The translations under genes were made by a program, and so were the position numbers. This document shows, piece after piece, positions 23,792-43,809 of a stretch of 64,000 bases of DNA (its first letter is position 1; each line of letters starts with the position of its first letter). The stretch comes from Rhodospirillales bacterium (GTDB lineage Bacteria; Pseudomonadota; Alphaproteobacteria; CACIAM-22H2). The notes below the pieces were generated by a model that ran no database searches, was not told the DNA's origin, and was given only the letters and a program-made list of their open reading frames with translations. The stretch lies in assembly GCA_947445225.1 (NCBI GenBank), contig CANFCX010000002.1, positions 26,119 to 90,118 on the forward strand, written 5' to 3'.

Positions 23792-23890
23792 CCGCGGGAG
23801 ATCCCGGAAATCGCGCCAGGAAAGGCGTCGCGGCGCCTTGACGTTCATGCCATGAACGGGGTATCGTTCACGATCTGAACAAGGATACCC

Positions 23891-24520
23891 TTGGCGAAAT
23901 CACAGGCATCGACGGGCGCGGGCGACACCGAAATCACACTCGGTCTGCTCAATGCGGTCGAAAAAAACAGCGATCTCACGCAGCGATCGGCGTCCCGCGA
24001 TCTCGGTATCGCGCTGGGTCTGACGAACGCCTATCTGCGCCGCTGCGTCAGCAAGGGGCTGATCAAGGTCAGGCAAATTCCCCGGAAGCGTTATGCGTAT
24101 TATCTGACGCCCAAGGGATTCGCCGAAAAAAGCCGGCTGACCGCGGAATACCTGTCCTCGTCGTTCAATTTTTTTCGCAAGGCCCGCAGCCAGCTCTCGG
24201 AATTGTTCGTGTTGTGCGAACAACGAAACTGGCGCCGCATCGCCCTTTGGGGATCCAGCGAGTTGGCCGAAATCGCCACCTTATGCGCGCGCGAACATGG
24301 CGTCGTTCTGGTCGGCATCCAGGATTCGAGAAGTAAAGCCGACACTTTCGCCGGGCTGAAGGTGTCAAGGCTGCCAGGCCAGCTTGGCGCGGTCGATGCC
24401 GTCATCCTCACCGAAACGCGGGCGCCGCAGGCCGCCTTCGACGAAGCCGCGGCAACCTTCGATCCAGAACGGATCCTGACGCCCAATCTGCTGCGGCTCG
24501 CGCATGGACGGAACCGCTGA
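23891..24520 (+). CDS. putative winged-helix transcriptional regulator, first gene of glycan locus
   Basis: N-terminal wHTH-like segment (LTQRSASRDLGIALGLTNAYLRRCVSKGLIKV...YAYYLTPKG) plus C-terminal alpha/beta domain; family unassigned. Confidence 0.4.
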   Translation: MAKSQASTGAGDTEITLGLLNAVEKNSDLTQRSASRDLGIALGLTNAYLRRCVSKGLIKVRQIPRKRYAYYLTPKGFAEKSRLTAEYLSSSFNFFRKARSQLSELFVLCEQRNWRRIALWGSSELAEIATLCAREHGVVLVGIQDSRSKADTFAGLKVSRLPGQLGAVDAVILTETRAPQAAFDEAAATFDPERILTPNLLRLAHGRNR

Positions 24521-24521: not shown

Positions 24522-25025
24522 ATGCGGCGATGGTACGTCGCCCACACCCAGCCGCGCGCCGAATCCCAGGCCGAAATGCATTTGCGCCGCCAGGAATTCG
24601 ACGTCTACCTGCCGCGCCACAAAAAACAGCGCCGGCATGCGGGCCGCGCGGAAATCGTCGCGGCACCGTTGTTTCCGGGCTATCTGTTCGTGGGCATCGA
24701 CATGGAGCGCCAGCGTTGGCGTTCCATCGATTCCACGGTCGGCGTTCACCGGCTGGTATCGGGCGGAGACGGACCGATTCCCGTGCCGCCGGAGGTGATC
24801 GAGGCGATCCGCGAGCGCGAGGATGATTGCGGCTTCGTGGTCCTCGGGCGGGGGACAACTTTCGCGAAGGGCGATCGGATACGCGTGGTCGCCGGAGCAT
24901 TGAGCGATCAAGTCGGGTTGTTTGACGACGGGTCCGATTCCCAGCGTGTTGTTGTCCTGCTTCAACTTCTCGGCCGCCCCGTGCGCGTGAGGCTTCCGCT
25001 CGACGCGGTGGCCGCCTGCGCCTAG
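24522..25025 (+). CDS. NusG-family paralog (RfaH/UpxY-like operon-specific antiterminator candidate)
   Basis: NGN domain signature WYVAHTQPRAE...LFPGYLFV and KOW-like C-terminus; ~168 aa; sits directly upstream of the glycan operon leader. Confidence 0.7.
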   Translation: MRRWYVAHTQPRAESQAEMHLRRQEFDVYLPRHKKQRRHAGRAEIVAAPLFPGYLFVGIDMERQRWRSIDSTVGVHRLVSGGDGPIPVPPEVIEAIREREDDCGFVVLGRGTTFAKGDRIRVVAGALSDQVGLFDDGSDSQRVVVLLQLLGRPVRVRLPLDAVAACA

Positions 25026-25124
25026 GCGTAATTGTTCCTGGCGCTCGCCCTCGGCGAGCCCAGTTTTCCGCGGCTTAGGGCGCGGTTGGAGTCAAGTTCC
25101 ACTGGGTGAAGGCTTTCACCCGGA

Positions 25125-25138
25125 CTGCGGTAGCTTTG
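25125..25138 (+). promoter_or_regulatory. ops-like element (ctGCGGTAGCtttg) in operon leader
   Basis: GCGGTAGC at 25127-25134 matches the 8 core positions of E. coli ops GGCGGTAGCGTG on the non-template strand, 32 nt upstream of the first biosynthetic ATG (25166). Confidence 0.45.
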
Positions 25139-25165
25139 CCGCGATCGTAAGGTTTCTTTCCCAAA

Positions 25166-25864
25166 ATGATCAGAGTTTTCATCGGTTACGATCCGCGCGA
25201 GGCGGCGGCGTTCAGCGTGCTCGTCCACAGCATCCACAAACGGGCGACCCAGCCGGTTTGTGTGGTGCCGCTGATGTTGACTCAGCTCGCCGGCACCCTC
25301 ACGCGGCCGCGTGAGAAACTGCAATCGTCGGATTTTTCGTTTTCCAGATTCCTCACGCCGCATCTTGCGGACTACCGCGGTTGGGCGATCTTCATGGATT
25401 GCGACATGATCATGCGCGAGGACATCGGCGCGTTGTGGAACCTCCGCGACGAACGTTTCGCGGTCATGGTCGTCAAACACGATCATGTTCCGTCCGAGAC
25501 CAAGAAATTTCTCGATGAGCCGCAGTCCAAATACGGCAAGAAGAACTGGTCGAGTGTCATGCTGTTCAATTGCGACCGGTGTCGGGCGTTGACACCGTCT
25601 TATGTCAACGCCGCGAGCGGCCTTGAACTCCACCAGTTCAAATGGCTCGGGGACGACTCCTTGATCGGCGAGCTGCCGTCGAAATGGAACCACCTGGTCG
25701 GAGTATCCGCGCCCCGACCCGATGCGGCGTTGGTCCACTACACGATCGGCGGACCCTATTTCGATGAATACCGGGATTGCGAATATTCGGCCGAGTGGTT
25801 CGCCGAACGCGACGACATGATGCGTTGCGACCAGCGGGCGACCGGCCCGGCGAAGCGGCCTTAG
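25166..25864 (+). CDS. nucleotide-diphospho-sugar transferase (GT-A-like, DxD) family protein
   Basis: DxD-like FMDCDMI motif, ~230 aa; weak family assignment. Confidence 0.45.
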   Translation: MIRVFIGYDPREAAAFSVLVHSIHKRATQPVCVVPLMLTQLAGTLTRPREKLQSSDFSFSRFLTPHLADYRGWAIFMDCDMIMREDIGALWNLRDERFAVMVVKHDHVPSETKKFLDEPQSKYGKKNWSSVMLFNCDRCRALTPSYVNAASGLELHQFKWLGDDSLIGELPSKWNHLVGVSAPRPDAALVHYTIGGPYFDEYRDCEYSAEWFAERDDMMRCDQRATGPAKRP

Positions 25865-27412
25865 GTGCTGGCCGTGAGCCCCGATACAGGTTTTCCGCCG
25901 GCCCTCGACGAAGCGACCGCGGCGCGGCGCTTCGCCAGCGTCGGGATAGAGGTGCGGGCGGTTTGGCGCGATCTCGCGCTCAAATTGGCGGAACGGCTAA
26001 AGCAGCGGTACGGGTCCAAGATCCATCTTTACGTTCGCAGCCCGGAGGAACTCCGAGCCTTTCAAAAGATGAACGCCGATGGCCGTTGGGACTCCGTATC
26101 CAACAACAATGTCATCCCCGAAGCCATGCGCGCGACCGGCCTGAACGACGCCGACGTCATTGCCCGCGCCCAAGAATTTGAAAAACAGACCGACACGACG
26201 ATTAACCTGATCGCCTGCGTCCACCGCCATTTCGGCCGCGGCTTCAGTCCGGGCAGCTTCCATTACCCGCGATCGCGGCACTATCAGGCGGTCAGCTACA
26301 TTCAGATGCTGCACGCACATAGCGAGCTGCTTGAATTCTGGCGCCGCGAGATCGAGGGCAAGGGCCTGACCCTGCTGCTCCAAGGCGACAAGGATGCGGC
26401 GATCATGGCCCGCGCCCATGGCATTCTCTATCGCCGTCTCGATACCACGCGCTACAAGAACTATTGGTACTGGACACCGAGCGAGTACTACTTCAACCCC
26501 GCCGTCGAGCCGGCCTATCACGCGATGACGTCGTGGCCGGAATCGGATCTCGGCGAGTCCTACACGCTTGCCACCGCAAAGAAGACTTGGTTCGCCAGCG
26601 ATTCGCTCGCCCTTACCTTGCGCCGCACCGCCATGGCGGCCCTTCGATATGGCTATTGGAAGTTACGGCGCTACCAAAAGGCCGATAGCTACGATTTCAG
26701 AGCCTTCGTGGCCTTCCCCATGCGTGAACATCTCGCCTTTCGGCGCATGACGGGAGCGCGCACCGTGCGGCTTGGTGATCTGGCCGGCCGACGGTTCGCC
26801 TATTTCCCGTTGCACAAGGAACCGGAAACGAGCCTCCAGCTGATGTCGCCGGAGCATTTCAATCAGCACGCCGCGATCCTTTCGATCGCCCGCGACTTGC
26901 CGGCCGGCGTGTTGCTCGCGATCAAGGAGAACATGTGGTCGCTCGGCCGCCGGCCCACCGACTTCTACGAACAAGTCGCCGACCTCAAGAATGTCGTGTT
27001 TCTCGATCTCCGCGAAAATGGCATCGATTGCGCGCGGCAGGCCGATTTCACCGTCACGATCACGGGCACGGCGGGATTCGAAGCCGCCGTGATGGGCAAG
27101 CCCGTTGTCACCTTTGGCCGCCACAACATGTACAGCGTGCTGCCTCACGTTATGACGGTCACCGACGAAAGGCAGATCAAGGGTTTCGTCGATCGGGCGA
27201 TCCACGGCGTCGATCCCGAAAAGGCGCGCAGCGATGGGGCCCGCTTCCTGGCGGCCGCGCTTGCTTGCTCTTTCGACATGAAAAACTTTGCCCTGAATAC
27301 GCGGACGCAGACCGCCCGCCTTCAGGATGACGCGGTCGAAAACGCTTATGCCGGGCTGATTACGAGCCTCGCCCTTCCCGAGACCAACCAGGTGGCGGCC
27401 TTGGCCGGATGA
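25865..27412 (+). CDS. capsule polysaccharide biosynthesis protein, KpsC/KpsS-like (Capsule_synth fold) candidate
   Basis: C-terminal motif TITGTAGFEAAVMGKPVVTFG resembles the NSTVGFEAL...GKPVV motif of KpsC/KpsS beta-Kdo transferases; from memory. Confidence 0.45.
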   Translation: MLAVSPDTGFPPALDEATAARRFASVGIEVRAVWRDLALKLAERLKQRYGSKIHLYVRSPEELRAFQKMNADGRWDSVSNNNVIPEAMRATGLNDADVIARAQEFEKQTDTTINLIACVHRHFGRGFSPGSFHYPRSRHYQAVSYIQMLHAHSELLEFWRREIEGKGLTLLLQGDKDAAIMARAHGILYRRLDTTRYKNYWYWTPSEYYFNPAVEPAYHAMTSWPESDLGESYTLATAKKTWFASDSLALTLRRTAMAALRYGYWKLRRYQKADSYDFRAFVAFPMREHLAFRRMTGARTVRLGDLAGRRFAYFPLHKEPETSLQLMSPEHFNQHAAILSIARDLPAGVLLAIKENMWSLGRRPTDFYEQVADLKNVVFLDLRENGIDCARQADFTVTITGTAGFEAAVMGKPVVTFGRHNMYSVLPHVMTVTDERQIKGFVDRAIHGVDPEKARSDGARFLAAALACSFDMKNFALNTRTQTARLQDDAVENAYAGLITSLALPETNQVAALAG

Positions 27413-28635
27413 CCCTGGAACTCGAATCCCCGCCGCCGGATGTCCGCCGGGCACCATCGCTCCACGACCGCATGCTCGCGAATTTCCGGTTGGCCCGCGA
27501 AAGTTATGTCCGGCACCATCGCAGCCGACATTGGGACCTTTTTCCGCCGGATTACGAGGCGCGGCTTGGCGACGAGAGTCTGTGGCCGGATTTCCGCCGC
27601 AATGGGCTGACCCGCGGGTTCGGCACCTCAAGGGGCGCGCCGGACACGCCCGACGATACGCTCGATTCGCGGGCGGCCGGCAAGTTGGTCGCGGCGTTCG
27701 ACGGGTTGGTCGGGATCACCGGCTTTGAGTTTGTCCGCGATTATCACGAGGCGCGCATCGGCCGCCCGGTGGCTCTGGAACACCGCGGTCTGCTGCTCGA
27801 TCGCAACGATTTGCGTCTGGTCCATGACACCTGGGAGATCGTGCGCCATCTCGGGCTGCCGGCGGATGCGGCGCCGACCTTCGTCGAAATCGGCGGCGGC
27901 CATGGCGGCCTCGTCGCCAAACTCAAACGGCGTTGGCCGCGTGCGCGGTGCATCATCCTCGACCTGCCGGAGGTCAACGCCGTTCAGACCCACTATCTTT
28001 CGACCGCCTTTCCTGGCGCTCGGTTGCTTCTTTATTCCGAGTTCCTGGCCGGCGGCGCCAAGGCGCTTTCAGGCGAGTTCGATTTCGCCATCCTGCCGGG
28101 CTGGACCGCCGATCAATTGCGCGACGAGTCGGCCGATCTGGTGATGAACACCCGGTCGATGCAGGAGATGAACCGCGAGACCATCGGGTTCTATTTCGAC
28201 CGGATTCATCGGTTCCTGCGGCCGGGCGGCCTGTTCTATTGCGTCAATCGCTATACCAAATCGACGGTCGGCGAGCCCATCCGCATTAAGGACTTCCCGT
28301 TCGATGACCGCTGGCACATTCAGGTATCGCGGCCGTCTTTCGACCAGCCTTGGATACATGAGTTGATCGCCGTTCGCTCGACAATGCCGGTCGTGCCGGC
28401 GCCAGCGAGCACACTTGCCGCGTTGCCCCCCTATCGTTTGGCCGATGTCGGGACCGGCTTGGCGACGGCGATCCGGCGGCTGTTCGCGATTATTTTCGGC
28501 GACCATCCCAACATCAATCCGGGCATTCCAGGCACCCTGCGCAACGCTCGCGTGGCGCTGGAGCGGGGTTTGGTGGCTTGGGTGCGCGGGCGCCCCGGTC
28601 TTCGGGCCGGCTTGAAGAAACTTCTGCGCCGCTGA
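27409..28635 (+). CDS. class I SAM-dependent methyltransferase (sugar O-methyltransferase-like)
   Basis: Motif I FVEIGGGHGGL and acidic motif II; ATGA overlap with upstream gene. Confidence 0.55.
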   Translation: MTLELESPPPDVRRAPSLHDRMLANFRLARESYVRHHRSRHWDLFPPDYEARLGDESLWPDFRRNGLTRGFGTSRGAPDTPDDTLDSRAAGKLVAAFDGLVGITGFEFVRDYHEARIGRPVALEHRGLLLDRNDLRLVHDTWEIVRHLGLPADAAPTFVEIGGGHGGLVAKLKRRWPRARCIILDLPEVNAVQTHYLSTAFPGARLLLYSEFLAGGAKALSGEFDFAILPGWTADQLRDESADLVMNTRSMQEMNRETIGFYFDRIHRFLRPGGLFYCVNRYTKSTVGEPIRIKDFPFDDRWHIQVSRPSFDQPWIHELIAVRSTMPVVPAPASTLAALPPYRLADVGTGLATAIRRLFAIIFGDHPNINPGIPGTLRNARVALERGLVAWVRGRPGLRAGLKKLLRR

Positions 28636-28647
28636 CGACGACAAAAC

Positions 28648-29946
28648 GTGCGCCCTCGCCTTGTCCTATTTTTCCTGTCGCCGCGGTTGATCGATTGCGA
28701 CAGCTACTTGCCCGTGGCGATGGAGATGAAGGCGCAGCTTCCCGATCTCGACATCCGGTTCGTTACCTTCAGCCGGGAAAACTACGATGATGTCCGCAGC
28801 AACCCCACTTTGGCGGCGGGCCTCGCCCGCTGTGGCACACTCGCCTGGGTCGGCGGCGAGGGGCCGGGCGGTCGGTTACGACGGTCGCTGCGTCGAATCC
28901 GCAAATTCGCGGAACTCGCCGCAAGCCTTATCCGGCGACCCGGGGCCATGCTCTTTCACGGGCGGCAGTATGTCGAACGCCCCTACCGCGCGCTGTTTTG
29001 GCTGAACCGCATGCTTGGCGGGCGCGGTTTCGTCCTGGCCAGGATCCGCATGGTTGACGAGGGGCACCATCCCCATCGGCTGAGCGAGTTCGAGGTCATG
29101 GGGTCGCGCCGACTCTCGTGGCTTGATCGCCTTCGCGGGCGCGAGAGCGACGGACTTGTGCACTACCACGACCGCCAGGAGATGTATCTCCGCTCTCTCG
29201 CGAAATTTGGACGCACAGACTGGCCGCGGCGCGCCAAAGTCGGGTTGCCCAGCGCCTTGCCTTCATGGCGGGCGCTTATCGCCGAGGCGGTGGAGACCGA
29301 ACGCCAAGCGCTCGCCGCCGCGGGCCGCAACGTGGACGAGATCTACAGTTTCTTTTCTGCCAAGGGTTACAGCTCCACCCATCTGCGCACGCCGGAGTCG
29401 GCGCAACGCACCTTCGACAACGTCGTGCGTAGTTTGACGACCCTGCGGCCGCGCGCGACGATTCTGCTTCGGCCCCATCCCCTGGCCCTGCGCGAACCTT
29501 GGTTCAAGGCGGCGTTGGAGGCGATCGGGAACCCCAATGTGGTTCTCAGCTACGCCCATCCCGAAGTCATGGTCGCCCTGTCGCGCCGTGCCTTGGTCAA
29601 CAATCCCACCAACATCCTGTTCACCACGCCCTTCGGCCGATTCATCGATTGCAGCGACTATCGCCCGTCACATTATGAGCAAGTCGGCGAGGCTTCGCTG
29701 GCGGAGGGATATGGCGTCGTGTTCGTCAACCCCGCCCGCGACGATTTCGCCCAGCGCCTCGAATGGGCGCTCGGCGAGGAGCCGTGGCAAGACGTGGCCG
29801 TCTTCGCCAAGCGGGAGCGACTGAGCCGCGACAATCCGCCCTCGATCGCCGAAATGCTGAACTGGTTCGAGGCGTCCATGCCAAACGCCGATCCCATCCC
29901 CTCGGGCATAAGCAACGCCGCTAGCAGTCCGGGGCAACGACCGTGA
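28648..29946 (+). CDS. hypothetical protein, possible GT-B-like/Capsule_synth-like transferase
   Basis: No firm motif; length and position in glycan operon. Confidence 0.3.
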   Translation: MRPRLVLFFLSPRLIDCDSYLPVAMEMKAQLPDLDIRFVTFSRENYDDVRSNPTLAAGLARCGTLAWVGGEGPGGRLRRSLRRIRKFAELAASLIRRPGAMLFHGRQYVERPYRALFWLNRMLGGRGFVLARIRMVDEGHHPHRLSEFEVMGSRRLSWLDRLRGRESDGLVHYHDRQEMYLRSLAKFGRTDWPRRAKVGLPSALPSWRALIAEAVETERQALAAAGRNVDEIYSFFSAKGYSSTHLRTPESAQRTFDNVVRSLTTLRPRATILLRPHPLALREPWFKAALEAIGNPNVVLSYAHPEVMVALSRRALVNNPTNILFTTPFGRFIDCSDYRPSHYEQVGEASLAEGYGVVFVNPARDDFAQRLEWALGEEPWQDVAVFAKRERLSRDNPPSIAEMLNWFEASMPNADPIPSGISNAASSPGQRP

Positions 29947-30665
29947 GCACCGGCGTTCTTTGCGTGATCCCGGCGCGCGGCGGGTCAAAAGGCCTGCCCC
30001 GGAAAAACGTCCTGCCCCTGGCCGGGCGGCCGCTAGTCGGCTACCCCATCGCGGCGGCGAAGGCGAGCGGCGTGTGCGATGCCATCTTCGTCACGACCGA
30101 CGACGAAGAAATCGCGGCGGTTGCCCGGGCCGAGGGCGCCGATGTGCCGTTCCTGCGGCCCGCCGATTTGGCCGGGGACCTGACGACGACGGAAGCCACG
30201 TTGCGCCACGCCTTGCTCGCCTATGAGTCCCATACCGGACGGCAATTCGACATTTGCGTCTTCCTGACGCCGACCGACATCTTTCGCAGCCCGGCCTGGA
30301 TTGCTCGCGCCGTGAACCTGCTGAAGGAACAGCCGAAACTCGAAAGCGCCTTCGCCGGTACCGCCACGCACAAGAATTACTGGGACCGCGAACCCGGCGG
30401 CGCCTGGGTTCGCGTCCTGCCCTGGATGCGCGACTACAGCTCGCGGCAGGTGCGCCGGAAAATCTATCGCGAGGACACCGGGCTCGCCTGCGCCAGCCGC
30501 GCCGATATCTGGCGCGGCGGACGGCGAATCGGCGACGTCGTTGAAATCATTCCCAACGACCTCCCCGAGACGGCGATCGACATCCATACCGCCTTCGACC
30601 TGTTCCTGGCGACCAAGGCGATCGAATATCTGCGCGCGCACCACCCCGAGCGCCTCCCCGTCTGA
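29943..30665 (+). CDS. acylneuraminate cytidylyltransferase family protein (CMP-ulosonic acid synthetase)
   Basis: N-terminal VIPARGGSKGLPRKN motif of NeuA/PseF/LegF family. Confidence 0.8.
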   Translation: MSTGVLCVIPARGGSKGLPRKNVLPLAGRPLVGYPIAAAKASGVCDAIFVTTDDEEIAAVARAEGADVPFLRPADLAGDLTTTEATLRHALLAYESHTGRQFDICVFLTPTDIFRSPAWIARAVNLLKEQPKLESAFAGTATHKNYWDREPGGAWVRVLPWMRDYSSRQVRRKIYREDTGLACASRADIWRGGRRIGDVVEIIPNDLPETAIDIHTAFDLFLATKAIEYLRAHHPERLPV

Positions 30666-32062
30666 TGGCAAAAACACCAACCGCGACTTCAGGCAACGAT
30701 GGACCTTTGGTCTCCATCATCGTACGCACAAAGAACGAGGAGCGCTGGATCGGTAGCTGCCTGCGCGCCATCCAACGCCAGACCTATCGCAATTACGAAA
30801 TTATCCTGGTCGATAACCTGTCGACCGACCAGACGGTGGCGAAGGCCGCGCCTTTCGGTGTCAAGCTGGTGCGAATCGACAAATTCCTGCCCGGCAAGTC
30901 CCTGAACGACGGCATCCGCGCCAGTCGTGGAGAGATTCTGGTCTGCCTTTCCGGGCACTGCATCCCGGTCAACGAGGTCTGGCTTGGCAATCTCGTCCGC
31001 AATCTCGGCGATTCAGACGTCGCGGGCGTTTATGGCCGTCAGGAGCCGTTGAGCTTTTCGTCCGATCTCGATAAACGCGACCTGCTCATTACATTTGGCC
31101 TCGACCGCAAAGTACAGGTCAGGGACAGCTTTTTTCACAACGCCAACAGCGCGATGCGGCGGGCGGTCTGGGATCGCTTTCCCTTCGACGAAACCGTGAC
31201 CAATATCGAGGATCGGGTGTGGGCGCGACAGGTCCTATCCGCGGGCATGAAGATCGTCTACGAGCCCGAAGCCAGCGTCTACCACTGGCACGGCATCCAT
31301 CAGGAGATGAATTCTGAGCGGGCGCGCAATGTCGTGCGCATCATGGAACAGATCGATGGTACCGAAAGGATCGGCGCCGGCCCCGATTCCGCCGACCTTC
31401 ACGTCGTGGCGATCGTGCCGAGCAAGGGCGAACCGCGCCGATTCAACAACGCGCCGCTCGCCCTGCCCACGCTACGCCACGCGCTGGCCGCCAAATACGT
31501 CAACCATGTATTTGTCGCCACCGACAATGACGAGATGGCGGCGGTGGCGCGATCCGCCGGCGCCGGCGTCATCATGCGGCCGCCGAGCCTGTCCGAAGAC
31601 TACGTTGATATCGTCGATGTGTTGCAATTCGCCTTGGAACGAATCGAGGCGCAGGGGACTGTCCCGGATTTGGTCGTCGCACTCGAGGAGACCCACCCCT
31701 TTCGCCCAATCGCCCTCGTGGATTCAATGATCGCCAAATTGGTGAAGGAAGGGATGGACAGCCTGGTGGCGGCCAAACGGGAGCCCCGCCGCGTGTGGCT
31801 GAGCGACGATGGCTCGATCCGAGATGCGGGAGAGGGCGGATTCATGCCGCGTCAGTTCAAACGCACCGTGGCGTTTATCGGGCTGTTCGGTCTCGCCTTC
31901 GTCACTCACCCCAGCCTGATCCGCAGCGGCAGCATGTTCGGCGGCAAGGCCGGCATCTACGAAATCGACGATCCCTTCTGCGGCATCGAAATCCGCAGCG
32001 AGGAGCATCTGAAAAAAGCCGGCCCGCTGTTCGAGGCGTGGTCCCGAGAGACCCGGCCGTGA
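30665..32062 (+). CDS. bifunctional fusion: N-terminal GT2 glycosyltransferase + C-terminal acylneuraminate-cytidylyltransferase-like domain
   Basis: N-term VSIIVRTKNEERWIGSCLRAIQRQTY...EIILVDN (GT2), C-term AIVPSKGEPRRFNNAPLA...ATDNDEMAAVARSAG (CTase). Confidence 0.65.
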   Translation: MAKTPTATSGNDGPLVSIIVRTKNEERWIGSCLRAIQRQTYRNYEIILVDNLSTDQTVAKAAPFGVKLVRIDKFLPGKSLNDGIRASRGEILVCLSGHCIPVNEVWLGNLVRNLGDSDVAGVYGRQEPLSFSSDLDKRDLLITFGLDRKVQVRDSFFHNANSAMRRAVWDRFPFDETVTNIEDRVWARQVLSAGMKIVYEPEASVYHWHGIHQEMNSERARNVVRIMEQIDGTERIGAGPDSADLHVVAIVPSKGEPRRFNNAPLALPTLRHALAAKYVNHVFVATDNDEMAAVARSAGAGVIMRPPSLSEDYVDIVDVLQFALERIEAQGTVPDLVVALEETHPFRPIALVDSMIAKLVKEGMDSLVAAKREPRRVWLSDDGSIRDAGEGGFMPRQFKRTVAFIGLFGLAFVTHPSLIRSGSMFGGKAGIYEIDDPFCGIEIRSEEHLKKAGPLFEAWSRETRP

Positions 32063-33150
32063 GTCGCCGGAGTTATCGCGCCGCGTTCATCGGCTGCGGC
32101 CGCGTGGCCGAGCACTATGTGCGCATTCTCACCAAGATCGATCCGGTCGATCGGCTTGCGATCGCCGCTTGCAGCGATCCGATCGAAGCTAAAGCGCGGT
32201 CGATCGGCGCCGCGCTTGGCGCCAAACCCTACGGCAATACCGCCCAAATGCTCGCCGAAACCCGGCCCGATCTGGCCATCGTGATGACGCCCAGCGGATA
32301 CCACTATGACCATGCCAAGCAGGCGCTGGAGGCCGGATGCCACGTTCTCGCGGAGAAACCGGTGACGATCATCCCCGGCCAGGCAGGTGAGCTTGCGACT
32401 CTCGCCCGCGCTCGCGGTTTGCTCTACGGCGGCGTATTCCAGAACCGGTACAATCCGGCGCTCCGAAAGCTGCGCGAAGCCGTCGATAAGGGACGCTTCG
32501 GCACCATCGTAACGGCCGCCATTCGCCTGCGCTGGTGCCGCACCCAGGATTATTACGAGGATGGGTGGCACGGCACCTGGGCCATGGATGGCGGTGTCAT
32601 CAACCAGCAGGCCATACATCATGTCGATGCGCTGAATTGGCTTTGCGGCCCGATCGAGGCTGTCTCCGCGTCGGCCGGCAACCGCCTGAACCGGCTGGAG
32701 GCGGAGGACACGATGGTGGCCGCCATCCGCTTTTCCAGCGGCGCGCTCGGCACCATCGAGGCGACGACCGCGGCGCGACCGGTGGATTTCGAAGCCTCGC
32801 TGAGCATCGTCGGTGAGAAGGGAATGGTCCAGGTCGGCGGCATCGCCCTCAACCATATCGATGTCTGGCGTTTCGTGGTGCCCGAAGCGGAAGACGCGGA
32901 GATTCCCGCCCGCTGGTCGCAAGAGGTGGAATTCGGCTACGGAGTCGGCCACGGTCCGCTGCTTCGGGATTGGGTGGCGGCGCTGGATGCTGGCGCCGTC
33001 GAGCCACCGATCCCGGCGATGCAGGCGGTCCAGGCCGTCGAGCTGGTGCACGCGCTCTACGCCAGCGTCGAGACCGGCAACTGGGTCCGACCGCGCGACA
33101 AGGCGCAATCCGCGCGACTGGGCATCGCGCCGAAATCAAGGGCATCATGA
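32059..33150 (+). CDS. Gfo/Idh/MocA family NAD(P)-dependent oxidoreductase
   Basis: AFIGCGRVAEHY Rossmann start, EKP motif (VLAEKPV); GTG 32059 overlaps upstream stop (GTGA). Confidence 0.8.
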   Translation: MSRRSYRAAFIGCGRVAEHYVRILTKIDPVDRLAIAACSDPIEAKARSIGAALGAKPYGNTAQMLAETRPDLAIVMTPSGYHYDHAKQALEAGCHVLAEKPVTIIPGQAGELATLARARGLLYGGVFQNRYNPALRKLREAVDKGRFGTIVTAAIRLRWCRTQDYYEDGWHGTWAMDGGVINQQAIHHVDALNWLCGPIEAVSASAGNRLNRLEAEDTMVAAIRFSSGALGTIEATTAARPVDFEASLSIVGEKGMVQVGGIALNHIDVWRFVVPEAEDAEIPARWSQEVEFGYGVGHGPLLRDWVAALDAGAVEPPIPAMQAVQAVELVHALYASVETGNWVRPRDKAQSARLGIAPKSRAS

Positions 33151-34043
33151 CCACGATTGAAAACAAGTTTCCCGGCAAGGATGTCTCCGACGATGACCTG
33201 CGCACGAAACTCAGGCTGACGGCGAAGGCCAATCCCGGACACAGGAGCCGATTCACCGTGGCCGGGGTTGAATTCGGCGGCGATCTCGTCCCCGTCTTCG
33301 CCGGCCCGAACATGGTCGAGTCCGAGAGCCTGATCGTCGATATCGCCAAAGCCGTCAAACGGGCGGGCGCTCATTTCCTGCGCGGCGGCGCCTTCAAGCC
33401 GCTGACGTTCCCCTATCGCAGCGCGAAATACGCCGAGACACGCGAAGAGGGAATTGCCTGGCTCGCTCGCGCCAAGGCGGTGGCGGGAATCCCGGTCATC
33501 ACCGAGATCATGGAAGAGAAGTACATACCGCTCGTCGCCGGAGTCGCCGACATCCTCCAGATCGGCGCCCGCAACATGCAGAACTATCCCTTGATCGTCG
33601 CCTGCGCGCGGACCGGCAAGCCGATCATGTTGAAACGCCATTTCGGCTGCTCGTTGCGCGATTGGCTGGGCGCGGCGGAATACATCCTGGCCGAGGGCAA
33701 TGAAAAGGTGATCCTGTGCGAGCGCGGCATCTCCGCACCGCACACGCACCGCGCCACCTCGCGCTTCCTCCTCGATCTTCAAGTCGTGCCGGCCGCGCAG
33801 GAAGTGACACATCTGCCGATCGTCGTTGATCCCAGCCACGCCACCTTTTGGCGGGCTTGGGTGGCGCCGATGGCTCTCGCCTCGGTCGCCGCCGGAGCCG
33901 ACGGCGTGATGATCGAAGTTCACCCCGATCCGCCCAACGCCGCGGTCGATCCCCTGCAACCCGTCGACTACGCCGAGTTCAAGGACATCATGGGCCGCAT
34001 GGACGCGGTCGCCCGCGCCGTCGGACGAAAAGTGCTGGCGTGA
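33147..34043 (+). CDS. DAHP synthetase I family protein (type I-beta DAHPS/KDOPS-like PEP aldolase) paralog
   Basis: [10 protein letters not shown] and [13 protein letters not shown] motifs match AroA(G)/T. maritima-type DAHPS; 298 aa; ATGA overlap with upstream gene. Confidence 0.75.
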
Positions 34044-34933
34044 CGGCGATCTCCGGACTGATCGAGAACAACGTAGCGTGGCAGCCGGGCAAGCCCTTCG
34101 CGGCGATCTTGGGCGCCAGCCCCTCAAAGGGGGCGCGGTCGCCTCGCCTTTGGAATGCAGCCTTCGCCGCGTGCGGCCGGGATTCAAGGATGGTGCCGTT
34201 CGACGTGACCGCGGCCAAACTGGCGGCTCTGCTGGAGGCCCTCGACCGCGATACCGATTTCCTCGGCGCGGCGATTGCCGTGCCGCATAAGGAGGCCGTG
34301 GCCCGGTGGCTCGGGGAGCGCGTCACTCCGGAAGCCGCGCGGATCGGAGCCGTGAACTGCCTCTTTCGGCGCGACGGACGCCTTTGGGGCACCAATACCG
34401 ATGGCGAGGCCGCCCGCGTCAGCCTGGAGCGAAGAGTTGGCGGGCTGTTGTCGGAGAAGCGTGTCCTCCTGCTCGGCCCCGGAGGCGCTGGCAAGGCAGT
34501 CGCGGCCTTCATCGTCGGCGGCTGCCGCGCGCTGTTTTTGGTCGGACGCGATGCCGAACGGACGCGCGCCTTCGCGGACAGGATCGGAGCGTCGTCCATT
34601 TCCGTCTCGGCACTCGATGCGCAATTGCCGGCGGTGGATGTGCTGGTCAACTGCACCAGCGTCGGCAGCGCCGCGGCCGGCACGGCGGAGCTTTCGCCGC
34701 TCTCCCCGGCCCAGATTGCGCGGCTTCCCGACCACGCCCTGGTCTTTGACATCATCTACGATCCCAGCCCGACTCGGCTTCTTGCCCTCGCGGCGGCGCG
34801 CGGCCTGGCCACGCTTGACGGGACCGAAATGAACCTCGAACAGGCGGCGCTCGCATTCGGCCATGCCGTTCCCGGCACTGGCACCGCCTCTGACATACAT
34901 GCGGCGATGGCGGCGGCGGCACGCCGCGCGTGA
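34040..34933 (+). CDS. shikimate/quinate 5-dehydrogenase (AroE) family protein
   Basis: SPxxxNAAF-like (SPRLWNAAF), GTNTDG and Rossmann LLLGPGGAGKAV motifs; GTG 34040 overlaps upstream stop (GTGA). Confidence 0.75.
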   Translation: MTAISGLIENNVAWQPGKPFAAILGASPSKGARSPRLWNAAFAACGRDSRMVPFDVTAAKLAALLEALDRDTDFLGAAIAVPHKEAVARWLGERVTPEAARIGAVNCLFRRDGRLWGTNTDGEAARVSLERRVGGLLSEKRVLLLGPGGAGKAVAAFIVGGCRALFLVGRDAERTRAFADRIGASSISVSALDAQLPAVDVLVNCTSVGSAAAGTAELSPLSPAQIARLPDHALVFDIIYDPSPTRLLALAAARGLATLDGTEMNLEQAALAFGHAVPGTGTASDIHAAMAAAARRA

Positions 34934-34967
34934 ACGCCGTCCCGGCGACAACCTCACGGATGGGGAC

Positions 34968-35810
34968 ATGCGCAAAATACTGAAGAGAATATTGATGGCG
35001 CTCGGGCTGTTCCCGATCGTCCTGGCCTTCCTCGACAAAGTCAAAAAGCCATTTCGGCGCACCGTGAACAAATGGCTGCTTTGGACCACAAGGCTGCGGG
35101 GCGGCAGCTACACCGATTTCTACGAGCGGATGATGGACCGCCGCGCCCGCGGCGCCTGGACCGGCAAATCGGGCGCGGCCGTTACCGGCACGCCCGAAGA
35201 GCGGAGGCGCCAGTTCGCCCCGGACTATTTCGCAACCCATGGCTGGATTACACCGGCGACGGTCTTCCTGGACTATGGCTGCGGCGGGGGGGCCACCGGA
35301 GTCAATTTCATCCGCCACCTGGACGCCGGCCGCTACACCGGCGCCGACATCTCAAGCGAATGCCTCGAACGTGCGCGCGGCTGGGTTGCCACATGCGGTC
35401 TTTCGGACAAGAACCCGAATTTCGTTCATTTGAGCCGCGGTTCGCTTGCCGGGCTGGCCGGGAAGAAGTTCGACGTCATCTACGCGCAAGATGTCGTCGT
35501 GCATATGCCGCCCGAGGCGGTTCGACAATTGATCCGCGACATGGCCGAATTTATGCACGAACGAAGTGTATTCCTGCTGACGTTCACCTATGCGGACTCC
35601 GATTGCGAATACCAAAACGACAACGTCAATTGGCACCACAACCCGCGATTCTTTATCGATGCGATCGAAGGGACGCCGCTCGATTGCGAGGAAGTTCGCG
35701 AGTGGGCCACCGCGGGCTACAAGCCAACCGTGCCCATCCGCATGGCCCGCTTCCGTTTGCGGTCGGGCGCGGCGAGTCACGAGCCCCGGGCGGCGGCGAC
35801 GCAGGGATAG
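34968..35810 (+). CDS. class I SAM-dependent methyltransferase
   Basis: Motif I LDYGCGGGATG; ATG 34968 inside ORF 34863..35810. Confidence 0.6.
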   Translation: MRKILKRILMALGLFPIVLAFLDKVKKPFRRTVNKWLLWTTRLRGGSYTDFYERMMDRRARGAWTGKSGAAVTGTPEERRRQFAPDYFATHGWITPATVFLDYGCGGGATGVNFIRHLDAGRYTGADISSECLERARGWVATCGLSDKNPNFVHLSRGSLAGLAGKKFDVIYAQDVVVHMPPEAVRQLIRDMAEFMHERSVFLLTFTYADSDCEYQNDNVNWHHNPRFFIDAIEGTPLDCEEVREWATAGYKPTVPIRMARFRLRSGAASHEPRAAATQG

Positions 35811-35816
35811 GCACAC

Positions 35817-36752
35817 ATGGACGCGCAAGCCAAAATCAAACCGCGCCGCACACCGGTCCAAGAAATGATGTTCATTTACGGTCTGCGCGCGGGCTTGCCC
35901 TTTCCGGCGATCAAGGTCGCCGCGGAGGCTCTGGACGTTGCGCGCCGCCCGTTGGATTGCTGGCATCGCCGCGCCGTCGCCCGATCGGTGTCGGCCGGTT
36001 CGTCGCGGCGGAACCACATTCCCCGGGCGAAGGGATTTGAGTTCATCGATTCCACGATCGTCCCGGAGATCGCGGCGCTGGTTTCCGCCGGGCAGGCGCT
36101 TTACGCCGAACGCGCGCGTTCCGTGCCCCAGGATGGGGCGCAGCCTTTCTACGACATCCTAACTGCGCGCGACATTCTCGACCAAAAGGCATTTCTCGAC
36201 GCGGCCTTGTCGCCGGCGATGGTCGAGATCGCCGCGGGCTATTTCGGCACGATGCCACGGCTGCAAAACCTAATGCTCTGTGTCTCGCCAGGCCGTCCCG
36301 CCTCGGCCCAAAGCGAACTGTTCCATTTGGATAAACCAAACGTTGGATTCCTGCAGGCCTTCGTCAACGTGCTCGATGTGGGGCCGGAAAACGGTCCGCT
36401 AACCTTTCTGCCCGCCGATGTTACCGCCCGCGTTCGCAGCGCCACCGGTTATGACCGCCGCTCGTTTTCCGGCGATACACGTCTCCGCGACGAAGAGGTG
36501 TTTCAGCATTGCCGTCACGAGGACGCCGTCGCCCTGGTCGGTCCGGCCGGGCACGGCGCCTTCGTCGACACGTCGAATTGCCTGCATTTCGGCTCTCGAT
36601 GCCGCGGCGGTGTTCGCGTCGTTTGTATTATTCAATACGCCCCGGCGCATAAATGTCGCCCGTCCTTTTCCGGGCGTTTCGACGGTCATCGATTCGGCGG
36701 CGATCCGATCCGGAGTCTCTTGCTCGACGGCGCGAGGCCGCGGTCCGAGTGA
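35817..36752 (+). CDS. phytanoyl-CoA dioxygenase (PhyH) family Fe(II)/2-oxoglutarate oxygenase candidate
   Basis: H-x-D facial triad candidate (FHLDKP), ENGPLTFLP motif. Confidence 0.45.
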   Translation: MDAQAKIKPRRTPVQEMMFIYGLRAGLPFPAIKVAAEALDVARRPLDCWHRRAVARSVSAGSSRRNHIPRAKGFEFIDSTIVPEIAALVSAGQALYAERARSVPQDGAQPFYDILTARDILDQKAFLDAALSPAMVEIAAGYFGTMPRLQNLMLCVSPGRPASAQSELFHLDKPNVGFLQAFVNVLDVGPENGPLTFLPADVTARVRSATGYDRRSFSGDTRLRDEEVFQHCRHEDAVALVGPAGHGAFVDTSNCLHFGSRCRGGVRVVCIIQYAPAHKCRPSFSGRFDGHRFGGDPIRSLLLDGARPRSE

Positions 36753-38581: not shown

Positions 38582-39402
38582 ACGACGATGCCGAATCCAC
38601 GAATCGGGATAGCGTCATTCGGGTGGCCGTGCTTACGACCGACACGCCGCACCACCGATATTATCTTCGCCGCCTGTGGAACGAGGCGCCGCAGGGTGTC
38701 GAATTCGTTCTCGCGCTTTTCGAGACCAGGCCCTATCCGTGGGGCCGCAATGCCAAGCGACATTTGCGCCAGACCATGCCGAATCTATGGCGCGGCCTTG
38801 CGCTCAACCCCTATTTCCAGCCCCTATCCTTCGCCCGCGCCCAGGCCGAGTTCGAAAATTCGCACTTCTTCCCCGATGGCGATAGCAGCCTTCCCAAATC
38901 CCTCCCGGTCAGAAAAGTCCGATCCGTCAACGATGACGACGCGGCGGTCGCACTTGCCGAGGCAGCGCCGGACCTTCAACTGGTCTATGGCACCGGCGTG
39001 GTCAAGGCACGGACCTTCGATGGGCCGCCGCTCGGCACGGTCAACGCTCATGGCGGAAAATTGCCGGCCTATCGCGGCCTCGACACCAATCTATGGGCGG
39101 TGCTTGAGGGGCGACCCCAGGATATGACCGTGACCCTCCACGGCATCGATGCCGGAATCGATACCGGCCAGATTTACGCCGCCGAGCCCATCGGCCGCAT
39201 CAAGGGCATGAACGCCGTTAATCTGCGCTGTCATACCGCGATCTTGTGCACACGCATGACCATCGATTTGCTCGCGCGTTTTGCCGCCGGCACCGCCAGA
39301 GCGGAGCCACAGACGGGCGAAGGCCGCTACTTCGGTCCGATGCCGTGGCTTCTCAGGCAGCGCGCCGGCCGGCTGCTGCGCGCCTATGCGGAGTCGCCAT
39401 GA
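38578..39402 (+). CDS. formyltransferase family protein (Fmt/PurN-like N-terminal domain)
   Basis: NAHGGKLPAYRGLD catalytic motif of N10-formyl-THF-dependent formyltransferases. Confidence 0.7.
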   Translation: MNDDAESTNRDSVIRVAVLTTDTPHHRYYLRRLWNEAPQGVEFVLALFETRPYPWGRNAKRHLRQTMPNLWRGLALNPYFQPLSFARAQAEFENSHFFPDGDSSLPKSLPVRKVRSVNDDDAAVALAEAAPDLQLVYGTGVVKARTFDGPPLGTVNAHGGKLPAYRGLDTNLWAVLEGRPQDMTVTLHGIDAGIDTGQIYAAEPIGRIKGMNAVNLRCHTAILCTRMTIDLLARFAAGTARAEPQTGEGRYFGPMPWLLRQRAGRLLRAYAESP

Positions 39403-41362: not shown

Positions 41363-41365
41363 TCC

Positions 41366-43192: not shown

Positions 43193-43809
43193 CGGCGACG
43201 ATCGCCATCGTGGACTACGGACTGGGCAACCTTACGTCGGTGGCCGGGGCGGTCGAACGGCTTGGTTTCTTACCCAGGCTTGCCGCCGACCCCGCCGCGC
43301 TGGAAACCGCCGACAAATTTATCCTGCCGGGGGTTGGCGCCTTCGGCGATGGAATGGCCGAGCTGCATCGGCGCGGCCTCGCCGACGCGCTGAACCGACT
43401 GGTTCTGGGGGCGGGCAGGCCGATCCTGGGCATTTGCCTGGGCGCTCAACTGCTCGCCCGCGGCAGCGCCGAGTTCGGCGATCACCGCGGCCTGGGGTGG
43501 CTGGACGCCGAGGTTGTTCGCATCGACCCAGCGGACACGAACCTGCGCGTCCCCCATGTCGGATGGAACGAGTTGCGCCGGAAACGCGATAGCGTGTTGT
43601 TCAAGAACGTCCCCGACGACGCGCTTTTCTACTACGTCCATAGTTTTCACATTTGCGGCGACCGCGACGTCATCACCGGCGAGACCGATTACGGCGGCCC
43701 GGTGACGGCGACGGTCGAGAAGGGGCGCATTTACGGAACCCAATTTCATCCCGAAAAGAGCCAGCGCCACGGCCTCACCGTCTTGCGCAATTTCCTCGAA
43801 GAGGGCTGA
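43189..43809 (+). CDS. HisH-like glutamine amidotransferase subunit (WbuY-type)
   Basis: IAIVDYGLGNL, GICLGAQLL catalytic Cys, HPE; TTG start overlapping upstream stop. Confidence 0.85.
   Translation: MTATIAIVDYGLGNLTSVAGAVERLGFLPRLAADPAALETADKFILPGVGAFGDGMAELHRRGLADALNRLVLGAGRPILGICLGAQLLARGSAEFGDHRGLGWLDAEVVRIDPADTNLRVPHVGWNELRRKRDSVLFKNVPDDALFYYVHSFHICGDRDVITGETDYGGPVTATVEKGRIYGTQFHPEKSQRHGLTVLRNFLEEG

Follow-up and report, generated by a model that had tools for sequence, protein, structure and literature searches.

Does an ops-like motif that lies between the gene of a NusG paralog and a long run of polysaccharide genes act as a loading site for that paralog, or is it one of the chance matches to be expected of an 8-mer? 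The question concerns three features of the window, by which the whole 64-kb stretch of DNA that was analysed is meant:

24522..25025, + strand: gene of an RfaH-like NusG paralog of 167 aa, with its ATG at 24522 (a longer open reading frame starts at 24504)
25126..25137, + strand: ops-type element TGCGGTAGCTTT, with the core GCGGTAGC at 25127-25134, read on the non-template strand
25166..62949, + strand: polysaccharide and nonulosonic-acid gene array, approximately 30 co-directional genes over about 37.8 kb

The earlier note had placed the motif in a 140-nt gap between the stop codon of the NusG-family gene (25025) and the ATG of the next open reading frame (25166), and both the place and the gap were confirmed: ctGCGGTAGCtttg occupies positions 25125-25138 of the + strand, and 31 nt separate the 3' end of the 8-mer from the first biosynthetic ATG. 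The claim that all eight core positions are matched held as well, GCGGTAGC being identical to positions 2-9 of the E. coli ops GGCGGTAGCGTG. Over the E. coli 12-mer, 9 of 12 positions are identical, with the window copy carrying T at ops1, ops10 and ops11 (of which ops11 is a match) and T at ops12, where E. coli has G. The consensus pause in ops comprises G at -10 (ops2), a pyrimidine at -1 (ops11) and G at +1 (ops12), and in E. coli the G12C substitution abolishes the U11 pause but not recruitment in vitro (PMC5995543). The window copy presents G, T and T at these positions, and the missing +1 G may make for a weak canonical pause here.

Within the window, the 8-mer was not found above chance, with 3 occurrences on both strands compared to 1.64 expected and with 24 of 100 shuffles reaching 3 copies. 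The other two copies, at 18033 and 63730 and both on the minus strand, look like chance, and were rejected as second copies of the element as they score nothing with the covariance model. Because the 8-mer alone was not significant within the window, comparative data were used, comprising 80 species-level loci that each encode a relative of the RfaH-like protein. In these 80 loci, 53 copies of GCGGTAGC were found on the coding strand 19-119 nt past the rfaH-like stop codon, as compared to the 0.24 expected within 130 nt past the stop from the rest of the loci (Poisson P ~1e-103); conservation in orthologous leaders, which the earlier note had proposed as a check, was thereby borne out. A strong match to the covariance model was obtained in 58 of the 80 loci, and its only real match in the window spans both the ops-type element and a hairpin upstream of it:

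25090..25146, + strand: covariance-model match (hairpin and ops) to model R1, 48.6 bits, E 8e-12
25102..25123, + strand: conserved hairpin, with the 5' arm CTGGGTGAA at 25102-25110, the loop GGCT and the 3' arm TTCACCCGG at 25115-25123

The unit conserved among the related loci is CCGGGTGA-loop-TCACCCGGAnTGCGGTAGCnTGG, a hairpin at fixed spacing from ops, and the sequence flanking it is otherwise unconserved. As judged from these sequences, the argument that GCGGTAGC is not an accident of composition is positional and comparative, and does not lie in its frequency within the window. The copy numbers in the window could be taken to mean that its 8-mer is a functionless chance match, but this reading is refuted by the enrichment over the 80 loci, the E-value of the model match and the lack of conservation in the flanks, and we give it virtually no credence.

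The family consensus of the ops segment, TGCGGTAGCGTG, agrees with E. coli ops at 11 of 12 positions, the exception being position 1, where the family has T and E. coli G. The pause positions are kept in most copies, ops2 being G in 88/88 sites, ops11 T in 83/88 (T or C in 85/88) and ops12 G in 76/88. As for membership of the ops type, the leader of the presumed target operon carries a GGCGGTAGnnTG-type sequence, read on the non-template strand. No copy of the element was detected within 4 kb of rfaH in 21 of the 80 loci, and no alternative motif was apparent in these; many of them have a convergent gene after rfaH, and in one (L016) the copy has apparently decayed. Presence, position, strand, conservation and co-occurrence of the parts were read directly from the loci.

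The hairpin contains an invariant TCACCC (25116-25121 in the window), identical in 88/88 sites and without any variation in its spacing to ops. In the window the structure folds with -13.7 kcal/mol (z -2.4), and at 54 of 57 related sites CACC forms the 3' arm of the minimum-energy hairpin. Paired cells amounted to 81%, compared to 33-51% when the partners were slid as a control, and the basal pair covaries (CG 38, UA 19, UG 15, GC 3). At three variable core pairs, G-U outnumbered A-C by 44 to 3, an excess that is specific to the plus strand and puts the hairpin on the transcribed sense strand. Across the family the hairpin has 8-10 bp, followed by 1-3 nt and then ops, with an arm spacing of mostly 6-8 nt (outliers 0 to 12). 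The 3' arm is kept invariant even at sites where the 5' arm has degenerated, which speaks for recognition by sequence and not by pairing alone and suggests that the arm is a second recognition determinant. Unsupervised RNAalifold on a MAFFT alignment missed the hairpin and returned only a trivial 3-bp helix; the support comes from folds of single sequences, from pair counts compared to slid controls and from an alignment based on a model, which leans towards structure.

Known RNA families did not account for the element, as no Rfam family matched the window at the gathering threshold or at E up to 10, and the only Rfam match listed (Ms_IGR-8, 12.9 bits) was discarded as noise. This includes the JUMPstart family RF01707, whose gathering threshold is 35 bits; the best-scoring relative (L041) reached 11.9 bits with this model, as compared to 62.4 bits for the E. 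coli positive control, and in the reverse test the covariance model of the element gave the E. coli element 4.4 bits. The hairpin sequence is indeed unrelated to that of the enteric JUMPStart. The layout is alike, however: RF01707 consists of a 5-bp hairpin, 1 nt and ops, and here, as in enterics, the hairpin ends 1-3 nt 5' of an 11-/12-nt non-template ops with the identical GCGGTAGC core and a T-G pause dinucleotide, located tens of nucleotides 5' of the gene that opens a long polysaccharide operon. A 14-codon GTG open reading frame (25106-25150) that spans hairpin and ops was considered as a leader peptide and rejected, its frame relative to ops not being conserved because the loop length differs between loci.

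The protein encoded 5' of the element resembles enteric RfaH most closely in both sequence and structure, in agreement with the locus-encoded NusG paralog of the earlier note. Public assemblies call the 167-aa form, which matches Pfam NusG with 86.5 bits. Among the NCBIfam models RfaH (TIGR01955) matches best, at 130 bits where the cut-off is 144.5; PRK09014 reaches 84 bits where 124 are required, the best match among solved structures is E. coli RfaH (E 2e-12), and homologs carry the JGI name "transcriptional antiterminator RfaH". The protein fails the cut-offs of the NCBIfam models for UpxY (NF033644, 82.1 bits, cut-off 100) and LoaP (NF033641, 56.2 bits, cut-off 125), and both scores are below that for RfaH.

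In E. coli RfaH, a pocket of H20, R23 and Q24 holds the flipped T6 of ops, and F56 is needed for polymerase binding (PMC5995543, PMC7593976). The window protein has Q10, H20, R23, Q24 and V73 at the ops-pocket positions, retaining three of the five E. coli residues (H20, R23 and Q24), and F56 is retained as well. A comparison of 96 homologs showed H20 in 82 of them, R23 in 85 and Q24 in all 96, with K10 replaced by H, Q or R and R73 by I, V or F. Four side chains make contact with ops in E. coli, and the loss of two of these, K10 and R73, counts against an RfaH/ops reading. Further differences from E. coli RfaH concern E48, which is not conserved (A in 68 of the 96 homologs), and the HTT motif, in place of which the clade has an invariant R-W-R motif of its own. 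The AlphaFold model (pLDDT 87.5) has an all-beta barrel as C-terminal domain, and aligns over its full length with both NusG and "fully recruited RfaH" (8PHK), while its alignment with autoinhibited RfaH (2OUG, 8PFG) extends through the N-terminal domain only. The autoinhibited, fold-switching alpha-helical C-terminal domain (E48, I93, F130) is absent from the model, and the C-terminal domain is hence predicted to be a beta barrel and not the autoinhibited form. The lack of a predicted autoinhibited state removes the rationale that applies in E. coli, where ops opens the protein.

The genes downstream of the element fit the long biosynthetic operon of the earlier note, with about 38 kb of co-directional polysaccharide genes that probably form a single transcription unit, presumed to be the target of the element, and that may continue past the window end. 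Their Pfam assignments include GT8-like, capsule-synthesis, methyltransferase, cytidylyltransferase, GFO/IDH/MocA, KDO8P-synthase-like and (twice) NeuB domains, together with Asn-synthase-like, HisF-like, carbamoyltransferase, ABC-transporter, PseB-like and (twice) GT4 domains. Nucleotide-sugar and polysaccharide genes lie 3' of the element in rfaH-adjacent and orphan copies alike; orphan copies head polysaccharide genes with no rfaH adjacent, and in one locus (L057) the element heads a divergent operon. In the metagenome pattern scan, approximately half of the rfaH-less matches were chance matches inside coding sequence, and the matches were re-filtered with the covariance model. The earlier note had suggested a dedicated antitermination switch, and its RfaH/ops reading is supported by these results; the word "dedicated" is too strong, since the element also heads polysaccharide genes without an adjacent rfaH.

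Upstream of the RfaH-like gene, a further set of features was found:

23838..23867, + strand: putative cassette promoter, -35 TTGACG at 23838-23843, 18-nt spacer, -10 TATCGT at 23862-23867
23843..23880, no strand assigned: two palindromes GTTCR-N5-YGAAY, IR1 at 23843-23857 and IR2 at 23866-23880
23891..24520, + strand: gene of a MarR-like regulator of 209 aa (Pfam HTH_24; NCBIfam MarR_EPS 63.7 bits)

The putative promoter is the only sigma-70-like site in 23500-25600, and TTGACGTTCA-N5-YGAAC followed by TA at the -10 position recurs in 71 of 73 related loci. IR1 lies within the promoter spacer and IR2 over the -10/start region; they are the only occurrences of the palindrome in the window, and exactly two copies are located upstream of the MarR-like gene in 63 of the 73 related loci, with GTTCA-N5-TGAAC as the family form. 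The MarR-like protein, which scores below the MarR_EPS cut-off of 88, has a winged helix-turn-helix and a long helix, with a small C-terminal domain that is Rossmann-like (AlphaFold model, mean pLDDT 86), and a homolog is encoded directly 5' of rfaH in 71 of the 80 loci. The palindromes are probably the operator to which this regulator would bind. The order of the cassette, as annotated from sequence, is promoter with palindromes, MarR-like gene, RfaH-like gene, hairpin and ops, and variable polysaccharide genes; this larger unit, with the invariant TCACCC arm, the MarR-like gene and its operator, had escaped the earlier note.

The spacer between rfaH and the element was considered with regard to the transcription start, and contains one further structure, directly 3' of the rfaH-like stop codon:

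25038..25067, + strand: terminator-like GC-rich hairpin (25038-25063) followed by TTTT, from the leader RNA fold

Similar structures were found in 9 of 54 related spacers, compared to 2.7 +/- 1.5 in shuffles. An obligatory terminator after rfaH was dropped on account of this low number, and the hairpin may be a partial attenuator; if it were efficient, a further, undetected promoter would be needed, a point that counts against the reading preferred here. The distance from stop codon to conserved hairpin has a median of 39 nt, and a consensus scan for a promoter between rfaH and ops gave none, nor any conserved position 5' of the hairpin. The conserved promoter 5' of the MarR-like gene and the absence of one in the rfaH-ops spacer argue for a start site upstream of ops.

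Taken together, we put at roughly 0.78 the probability that the segment 25102-25137 corresponds, in Alphaproteobacteria, to the enteric JUMPStart/ops and is a transcribed leader signal, with the ops-type element probably serving the RfaH-like protein as pause and loading site. We infer that the element is transcribed, and pausing, binding and antitermination would proceed in the following manner. Transcription would start at about 23870 at the conserved promoter, gated by the MarR-like protein on the two GTTCA-N5-TGAAC palindromes, and would continue across the MarR-like and RfaH-like genes. On reaching the hairpin and ops, RNA polymerase would pause at the consensus pause of ops with GCGGTAGC exposed in the open bubble. 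The hairpin would have its base about 12-13 nt upstream of the pause position and probably prolongs or positions this pause. The RfaH-like protein would then bind the exposed DNA and the polymerase, displacing NusG, and enable the polymerase to withstand both pausing and Rho termination over the array of about 38 kb. Ribosome recruitment by the RfaH-like protein is a possible extra role.

A different explanation is that the signal is read mainly as RNA, through the hairpin with its UCACCC arm and a single-stranded GCGGUAGC tail, by the RfaH-like protein or by another RNA-binding factor, with DNA-level ops recognition being secondary or absent. LoaP-type paralogs require an RNA hairpin in the leader, and the RfaH-like protein could act on the leader RNA in the same way; the sense-strand hairpin with its G-U excess, the 3' arm that stays invariant where the 5' arm is degenerate and the missing E. 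coli DNA contacts K10 and R73 all fit this explanation. The core, however, equals the E. coli DNA ops at 8/8 positions, with the pause positions likewise conserved, the T6 pocket of H20, R23 and Q24 is kept, and the enteric JUMPStart, hairpin included, acts via non-template DNA (PMC5995543). We regard recognition mainly at the RNA level as unlikely.

Still less probable, in our view, is that the inverted repeat GGGTGA...TCACCC serves as a duplex-DNA operator or promoter element for a regulator, MarR-like or other, with an incidental likeness to ops. Such inverted repeats are often used by dimeric regulators, a MarR-like gene is nearby in most loci and the element lies just 5' of the first biosynthetic gene. 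The MarR-like gene, however, owns a different and strongly conserved palindrome, for which reason the hairpin was ruled out as its operator, and GGGTGA/TCACCC is absent from the promoter region of that gene. A duplex-DNA operator is hard to reconcile with an arm spacing that varies, which is ill suited to a rigid dimer, and with the tolerance of G-U on one strand only; moreover, no -35/-10 pattern was found at a fixed distance, and the 12 nt 3' of the repeat reproduce ops and its pause positions over 88 sites.

With the JUMPStart/ops counterpart as the preferred reading, the arrangement can be compared to other specialised NusG paralogs. LoaP (Bacillus), UpxY (Bacteroides) and TaA (Myxococcus) are likewise encoded in their target clusters, which are long secondary-metabolite or polysaccharide operons, and act with a leader signal, although these signals are not ops; that of LoaP includes an RNA hairpin. 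E. coli rfaH is unlinked to its targets and monocistronic (PMC7593976), whereas here the factor gene is immediately 5' and co-oriented, beside a MarR-like regulator. The IncX3 conjugative plasmids also encode an RfaH-like factor, PrfaH, in cis; its gene is transcribed together with the long operon that it targets, and the factor is recruited at an ops-like site within that operon (PMC11880322). The differences are that ops lies 5' of the prfaH start codon in the plasmids and 3' of the factor gene here, that the hosts differ, and that type IV secretion and H-NS take the places held here by polysaccharide and the MarR-like protein. The predicted monomorphic RfaH homologs next to long operons (Tabilo-Agurto et al. 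2026, preprint, PMC13015549) and CL4 (Wang et al. 2020, PMC7593976) share with the window protein a predicted beta-barrel C-terminal domain, the replacement of E48 by A and an adjoining long envelope-polysaccharide operon. In E. coli RfaH, E48A brings about freedom from ops dependence (PMC13015549 / PMC7593976). These two studies described proteins and gene neighbourhoods, reported no conserved ops or hairpin beside such genes, and called the modes of recruitment outside E. coli unknown (PMC13015549, PMC7593976). A literature search of open-access papers and bioRxiv returned nothing relevant, which is weak evidence of novelty.

A possible, though rather doubtful, interpretation is that this clade stands, in evolution, between NusG and the fold-switching enteric RfaH, with an open factor that reads a bipartite signal, perhaps the UCACCC hairpin arm (as RNA or upstream DNA, perhaps via R-W-R) together with the non-template ops. 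It suggests a factor that is constitutively open and still sequence-targeted, loaded in most cases only tens of nucleotides past its own stop codon, so that the newly made protein would meet the very polymerase that transcribed its gene. If this were true, ops recognition would be older than autoinhibition, and there would be a concrete mechanism by which NusG paralogs encoded in cis are recruited.

RfaH/ops is the textbook case of factor recruitment by the non-template DNA strand. The mechanism of RfaH-type recruitment is known only for E. coli, and reviews describe the modes of other specialised NusG paralogs, above all of the target-adjacent ones, as unknown (PMC7593976). The locus described here appears to carry an alphaproteobacterial version of RfaH/ops in a self-contained regulatory cassette, undescribed so far, in which the ops core is that of E. 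coli despite the difference in two of the four contact side chains and no predicted autoinhibition. For a large clade of Alphaproteobacteria, with Bradyrhizobium, Nitrobacter, Afipia and Rhodopseudomonas as well as many aquatic and soil lineages among its members, it offers a candidate signal that is defined and widely conserved. The compact cassette is a candidate for reuse in the expression of long gene clusters in Alphaproteobacteria, and the element may serve as an annotation marker for the starts of O-antigen and capsule operons in these genomes.

The leader in question reads ...cacccggaCTGCGGTAGCTTTGccgcg... on the + strand and occupies a 140-nt gap between the stop codon of an upstream open reading frame (25025) and the ATG of the next long + strand frame (25166). 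It carries the 8-mer GCGGTAGC, identical to positions 2–9 of the E. coli ops element GGCGGTAGCGTG, and 9 of the 12 ops positions match, the window having T at positions 1, 10 and 12. The position, gap and core match described in the earlier note were thus borne out by the window coordinates and by comparison with E. coli ops. The features of the region are as follows:

23838–23843, + strand: predicted promoter -35 element TTGACG, followed by an 18-nt spacer
23862–23867, + strand: predicted promoter -10 element TATCGT
23843–23857 and 23866–23880: palindromes GTTCR-N5-YGAAY, the only two in the whole window
23891–24520, + strand: MarR-like winged-helix gene, 209 aa
24522–25025, + strand: rfaH-like gene, 167 aa
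25038–25067, + strand: GC-rich hairpin resembling a terminator, ending in UUUU, immediately 3' of the rfaH-like stop codon
25102–25123, + strand: hairpin CUGGGUGAA-GGCU-UUCACCCGG, -13.7 kcal/mol, z -2.4
25125–25138, + strand: ops-like element ctGCGGTAGCtttg
25127–25134, + strand: ops core 8-mer GCGGTAGC

The number of 8-mers in the window, 3 on both strands against 1.64 expected, was reached in 24 of 100 shuffles and is unremarkable, so the claim for an ops element must rest on position and comparison. The other two copies, at 18033–18040 and 63730–63737 (minus strand), were rejected as chance occurrences, neither scoring with the covariance model R1, built on the hairpin and ops together; the former lies on the minus strand opposite a + strand leuD-like frame (17843–18454). 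In the predicted fold of the window RNA, ops pairs with a downstream UGCCGCG (25126–25143), a pairing that the near relative L001 has in weaker form and that is not kept across the family.

For the comparison, 20 homologs were aligned and the alignment was used to fetch 80 loci, one genome per species, mostly from Alphaproteobacteria (Bradyrhizobium, Nitrobacter, Afipia, Pseudolabrys, Rhodospirillaceae and Xanthobacteraceae; 48–58% protein identity). Conservation of the motif in orthologous leaders, on which the earlier note had made its claim depend, was clear: 53 copies of GCGGTAGC lay on the same strand within 130 nt downstream of the rfaH-like stop (median 64 nt, range 19–119), where the rate elsewhere in those loci predicts 0.24 (Poisson P ~1e-103). 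Block alignment of the related loci revealed no conservation in the flanks on either side, so the conservation of the block reflects selection and not recent common descent. The window sequence corresponds to a metagenome contig, and its RfaH-like protein is 96% identical to that of a Lake Baikal Rhodospirillaceae genome bin (L001). Three loci with the full cassette are labelled as Candidatus Acidiferrales, Candidatus Udaeobacter and Actinomycetota bins (L018, L063 and L080); these are probably mis-binned alphaproteobacterial contigs rather than evidence of horizontal transfer. In another locus, L016, the sequence TCACCCGGcacacGCGGTAag downstream of rfaH (~4575–4600) is a degenerate copy that carries 2 additional bases and differs at two core positions; it seems to be an element in decay.

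Conservation extends well beyond the 8-mer of the earlier note. When sites were aligned by the 8-mer, the surrounding block had the form CCGGGTGA-loop-TCACCCGGAnTGCGGTAGCnTGGnAAA, in which the arms GGGTGA and TCACCC form a stem-loop. R1 matched strongly in 58 of the 80 loci and found a single site in the window (25090–25146, 48.6 bits, E 8e-12), with no second copy in the 64 kb. In a model-based alignment of 88 sites, TCACCC was invariant, as was its spacing to GCGGTAGC. Position 11 of ops was T in 83 sites and position 12 was G in 76, giving a family consensus, TGCGGTAGCGTG, identical to E. coli ops at all but one of the 12 positions; it retains all three of the consensus-pause positions described in ops (PMC5995543). 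The window copy and L001 have T at ops position 12, and the window's R1 score is mid-range for the family.

Several observations support the hairpin. At 54 of 57 genome-derived sites the minimum-energy hairpin had CACC as its 3' arm, and 81% of cells in the 88-site alignment were paired, compared to 33–51% when partners were slid by 1–3 columns, though this alignment is biased towards the structure. The basal core pair covaries (CG 38, UA 19, UG 15, GC 3), the six inner pairs being invariant and hence uninformative on structure, and the spacing between arms is 6–8 nt in 78 of 88 sites (outliers 0–12). RNAalifold on a plain MAFFT alignment did not recover the hairpin. At the three variable core pairs G-U exceeded A-C by 44 to 3, which assigns the structure to the + strand, as RNA or non-template DNA, and not to a symmetric duplex site. 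Decay of the 5' arm (loci L028, L029 and L054) leaves the 3' arm unchanged, so the 3' arm is apparently recognised through its sequence in addition to its pairing. Within 25104–25121, the 5' arm includes GGUGA and the 3' arm UCACC, which we take to resemble an extended Shine-Dalgarno sequence and the 16S rRNA 3' tail, respectively, possibly by coincidence.

The nearest known element is the enteric JUMPStart, modelled in Rfam RF01707 as a 5-bp hairpin, 1 nt and then ops. It shares layout and hairpin-to-ops spacing with the window element, but outside ops the two have no sequence in common. While RF01707 scored 62.4 bits on the E. coli galF/O-antigen leader (positive control), it found no match in the window and gave 11.9 bits at the best alphaproteobacterial site; the E. 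coli element scored 4.4 bits with R1. The window element may accordingly be regarded as a JUMPStart analogue in function, outside RF01707 as modelled. A cis-encoded RfaH-like factor with an ops in its own operon is known from IncX3 plasmids (PrfaH), where ops precedes the factor gene, whereas in the window it follows it (PMC11880322).

The product of the upstream frame belongs to the NusG family. Its best NCBIfam model was RfaH (TIGR01955, 130 bits, below the curated cut-off of 144.5), with the UpxY, NusG and LoaP models all scoring lower, and its best solved-structure match was E. coli RfaH, with a gapless alignment of the first 100 residues. E. coli numbering from this alignment was used to compare 96 homologs. 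At residues 65–67 (window 24714–24722), R-W-R takes the place of the HTT motif through which E. coli RfaH touches the polymerase beta gate loop; its W is present in all 96, which marks it as a signature of the clade. H20 (82), R23 (85), Q24 (96), F56 (95) and T72 (96) were kept, while K10 was replaced by H, Q or R, R73 by I, V or F, and E48 by A in 68 homologs. In E. coli RfaH, ops is contacted by K10, H20, R23 and R73, the flipped-T6 pocket is formed by H20, R23, Q24 and R73, and E48 is required for autoinhibition (PMC5995543; PMC7593976). An AlphaFold model from the 96-sequence alignment (pLDDT 87.5) had an all-beta C-terminal domain, and Foldseek matched it at full length to NusG and fully recruited RfaH (8PHK, 6C6S), and through the N-terminal domain only to autoinhibited RfaH (2OUG, 8PFG). 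The protein is thus predicted to fit the "monomorphic" RfaH homologs, which according to a 2026 preprint lie beside long operons; the preprint reports no ops sites next to them (PMC13015549).

In 71 of 80 loci the gene immediately before rfaH is a homolog of the MarR-like gene; in the window the two frames overlap. Upstream of the MarR-like gene, TTGACGTTCA-N5-YGAAC followed by TA 18 nt after TTGACG was found in 71 of 73 loci, a pattern that reads as a -35/-10 promoter whose spacer contains a GTTCA-N5-TGAAC palindrome. A further copy of the palindrome occurred in 63 of 73 loci, downstream of -10 in Rhodospirillales-type loci and upstream of -35 in Bradyrhizobium-type loci. The C-terminal half of the MarR-like protein (~100 aa; family of >6000 members at E up to 1e-8) had no Pfam or solved-structure sequence match. 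In its AlphaFold model (pLDDT 86) a long helix leads into a small alpha/beta domain of Rossmann-like fold, which suggests a regulator sensing a ligand, perhaps a nucleotide or nucleotide-sugar. The simplest reading is that one transcript would run from the promoter through both regulator genes, hairpin and ops into the polysaccharide genes. The hairpin at 25038–25067 resembles a weak intrinsic terminator that would separate the regulator genes from ops. Between rfaH stop and conserved hairpin (median 39 nt) the related loci have no conserved position; terminator-like structures, seen only in relatives with long spacers, occurred in 9 of 54 spacers against 2.7 expected, a mild enrichment in the longer ones that makes partial attenuation possible.

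All plausible genes from 25166 at least as far as 62949 lie on the + strand. This array, a polysaccharide and nonulosonic-acid cluster of ~38 kb, encodes glycosyltransferases, methyltransferases, CMP-sugar cytidylyltransferases, two NeuB-type synthases, a PseB-like dehydratase, a carbamoyltransferase, amidotransferases and an ABC transporter. Its two NeuB-family synthases, three CMP-sugar cytidylyltransferase domains, KDO8P-synthase-like gene, shikimate-dehydrogenase-like gene and HisF-like gene (noted at 39740–41362 and 55705–56775) suggest that the cluster makes several acids of the nonulosonic or ulosonic type, at least two, bearing amidino or other modifications. The first biosynthetic gene is preceded (25139–25165) by only a weak Shine-Dalgarno-like AAGG at an unfavourable spacing, 13 nt from the ATG, reminiscent of those E. 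coli RfaH targets that depend on RfaH for ribosome recruitment. Across loci, the element is most often followed first by a gene for a nucleotide-sugar dehydratase/epimerase, a GFO/IDH/MocA oxidoreductase or a transporter; in one locus (L057) the element heads a divergent operon, and in three (L046, L069 and L080) it lies 2.4–3.4 kb from rfaH. A metagenome scan for TCACCCGNNNTGCGGTAGC returned 120 stretches, with rfaH adjacent in 49 of the 91 having enough upstream sequence. Many remaining matches were chance hits inside genes, and at least 11 sites that lack an adjacent rfaH and precede capsule, sugar-transferase and epimerase genes scored 32–56 bits with R1. This makes it probable that the factor is diffusible and serves several polysaccharide leaders, the 38-kb array being its linked target but not necessarily its only one. 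The antitermination switch proposed in the earlier note is supported by the conserved ops and RfaH-like gene, while "dedicated" has to be softened.

All parts exist, are conserved and co-occur in the order and orientation described. By extension from E. coli, RNA polymerase would pause at ops, the N-terminal domain of the RfaH-like factor would bind the exposed GCGGTAGC and the polymerase, and the factor would then suppress pausing and Rho termination across the operon. The hairpin base, ~12–13 nt behind ops U11 as in JUMPStart, could act from the RNA exit channel to stabilise the pause or set its position. More speculatively, the invariant UCACCC may be a second recognition determinant, and an ops just after the factor's own stop codon may favour loading in cis.

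Ops-like signals for RfaH homologs are what a specialist would expect, and a full-text search for RfaH, ops and Alphaproteobacteria matched only Wang et al. (PMC7593976). Four features are not in the searched literature: an ops core that is kept across classes although contact residues have changed, a factor predicted to lack autoinhibition, the invariant hairpin arm, and the full cassette of promoter/operator, MarR-like and RfaH-like genes, hairpin and ops. Together they open the way to direct tests of how cis-encoded NusG paralogs are recruited.
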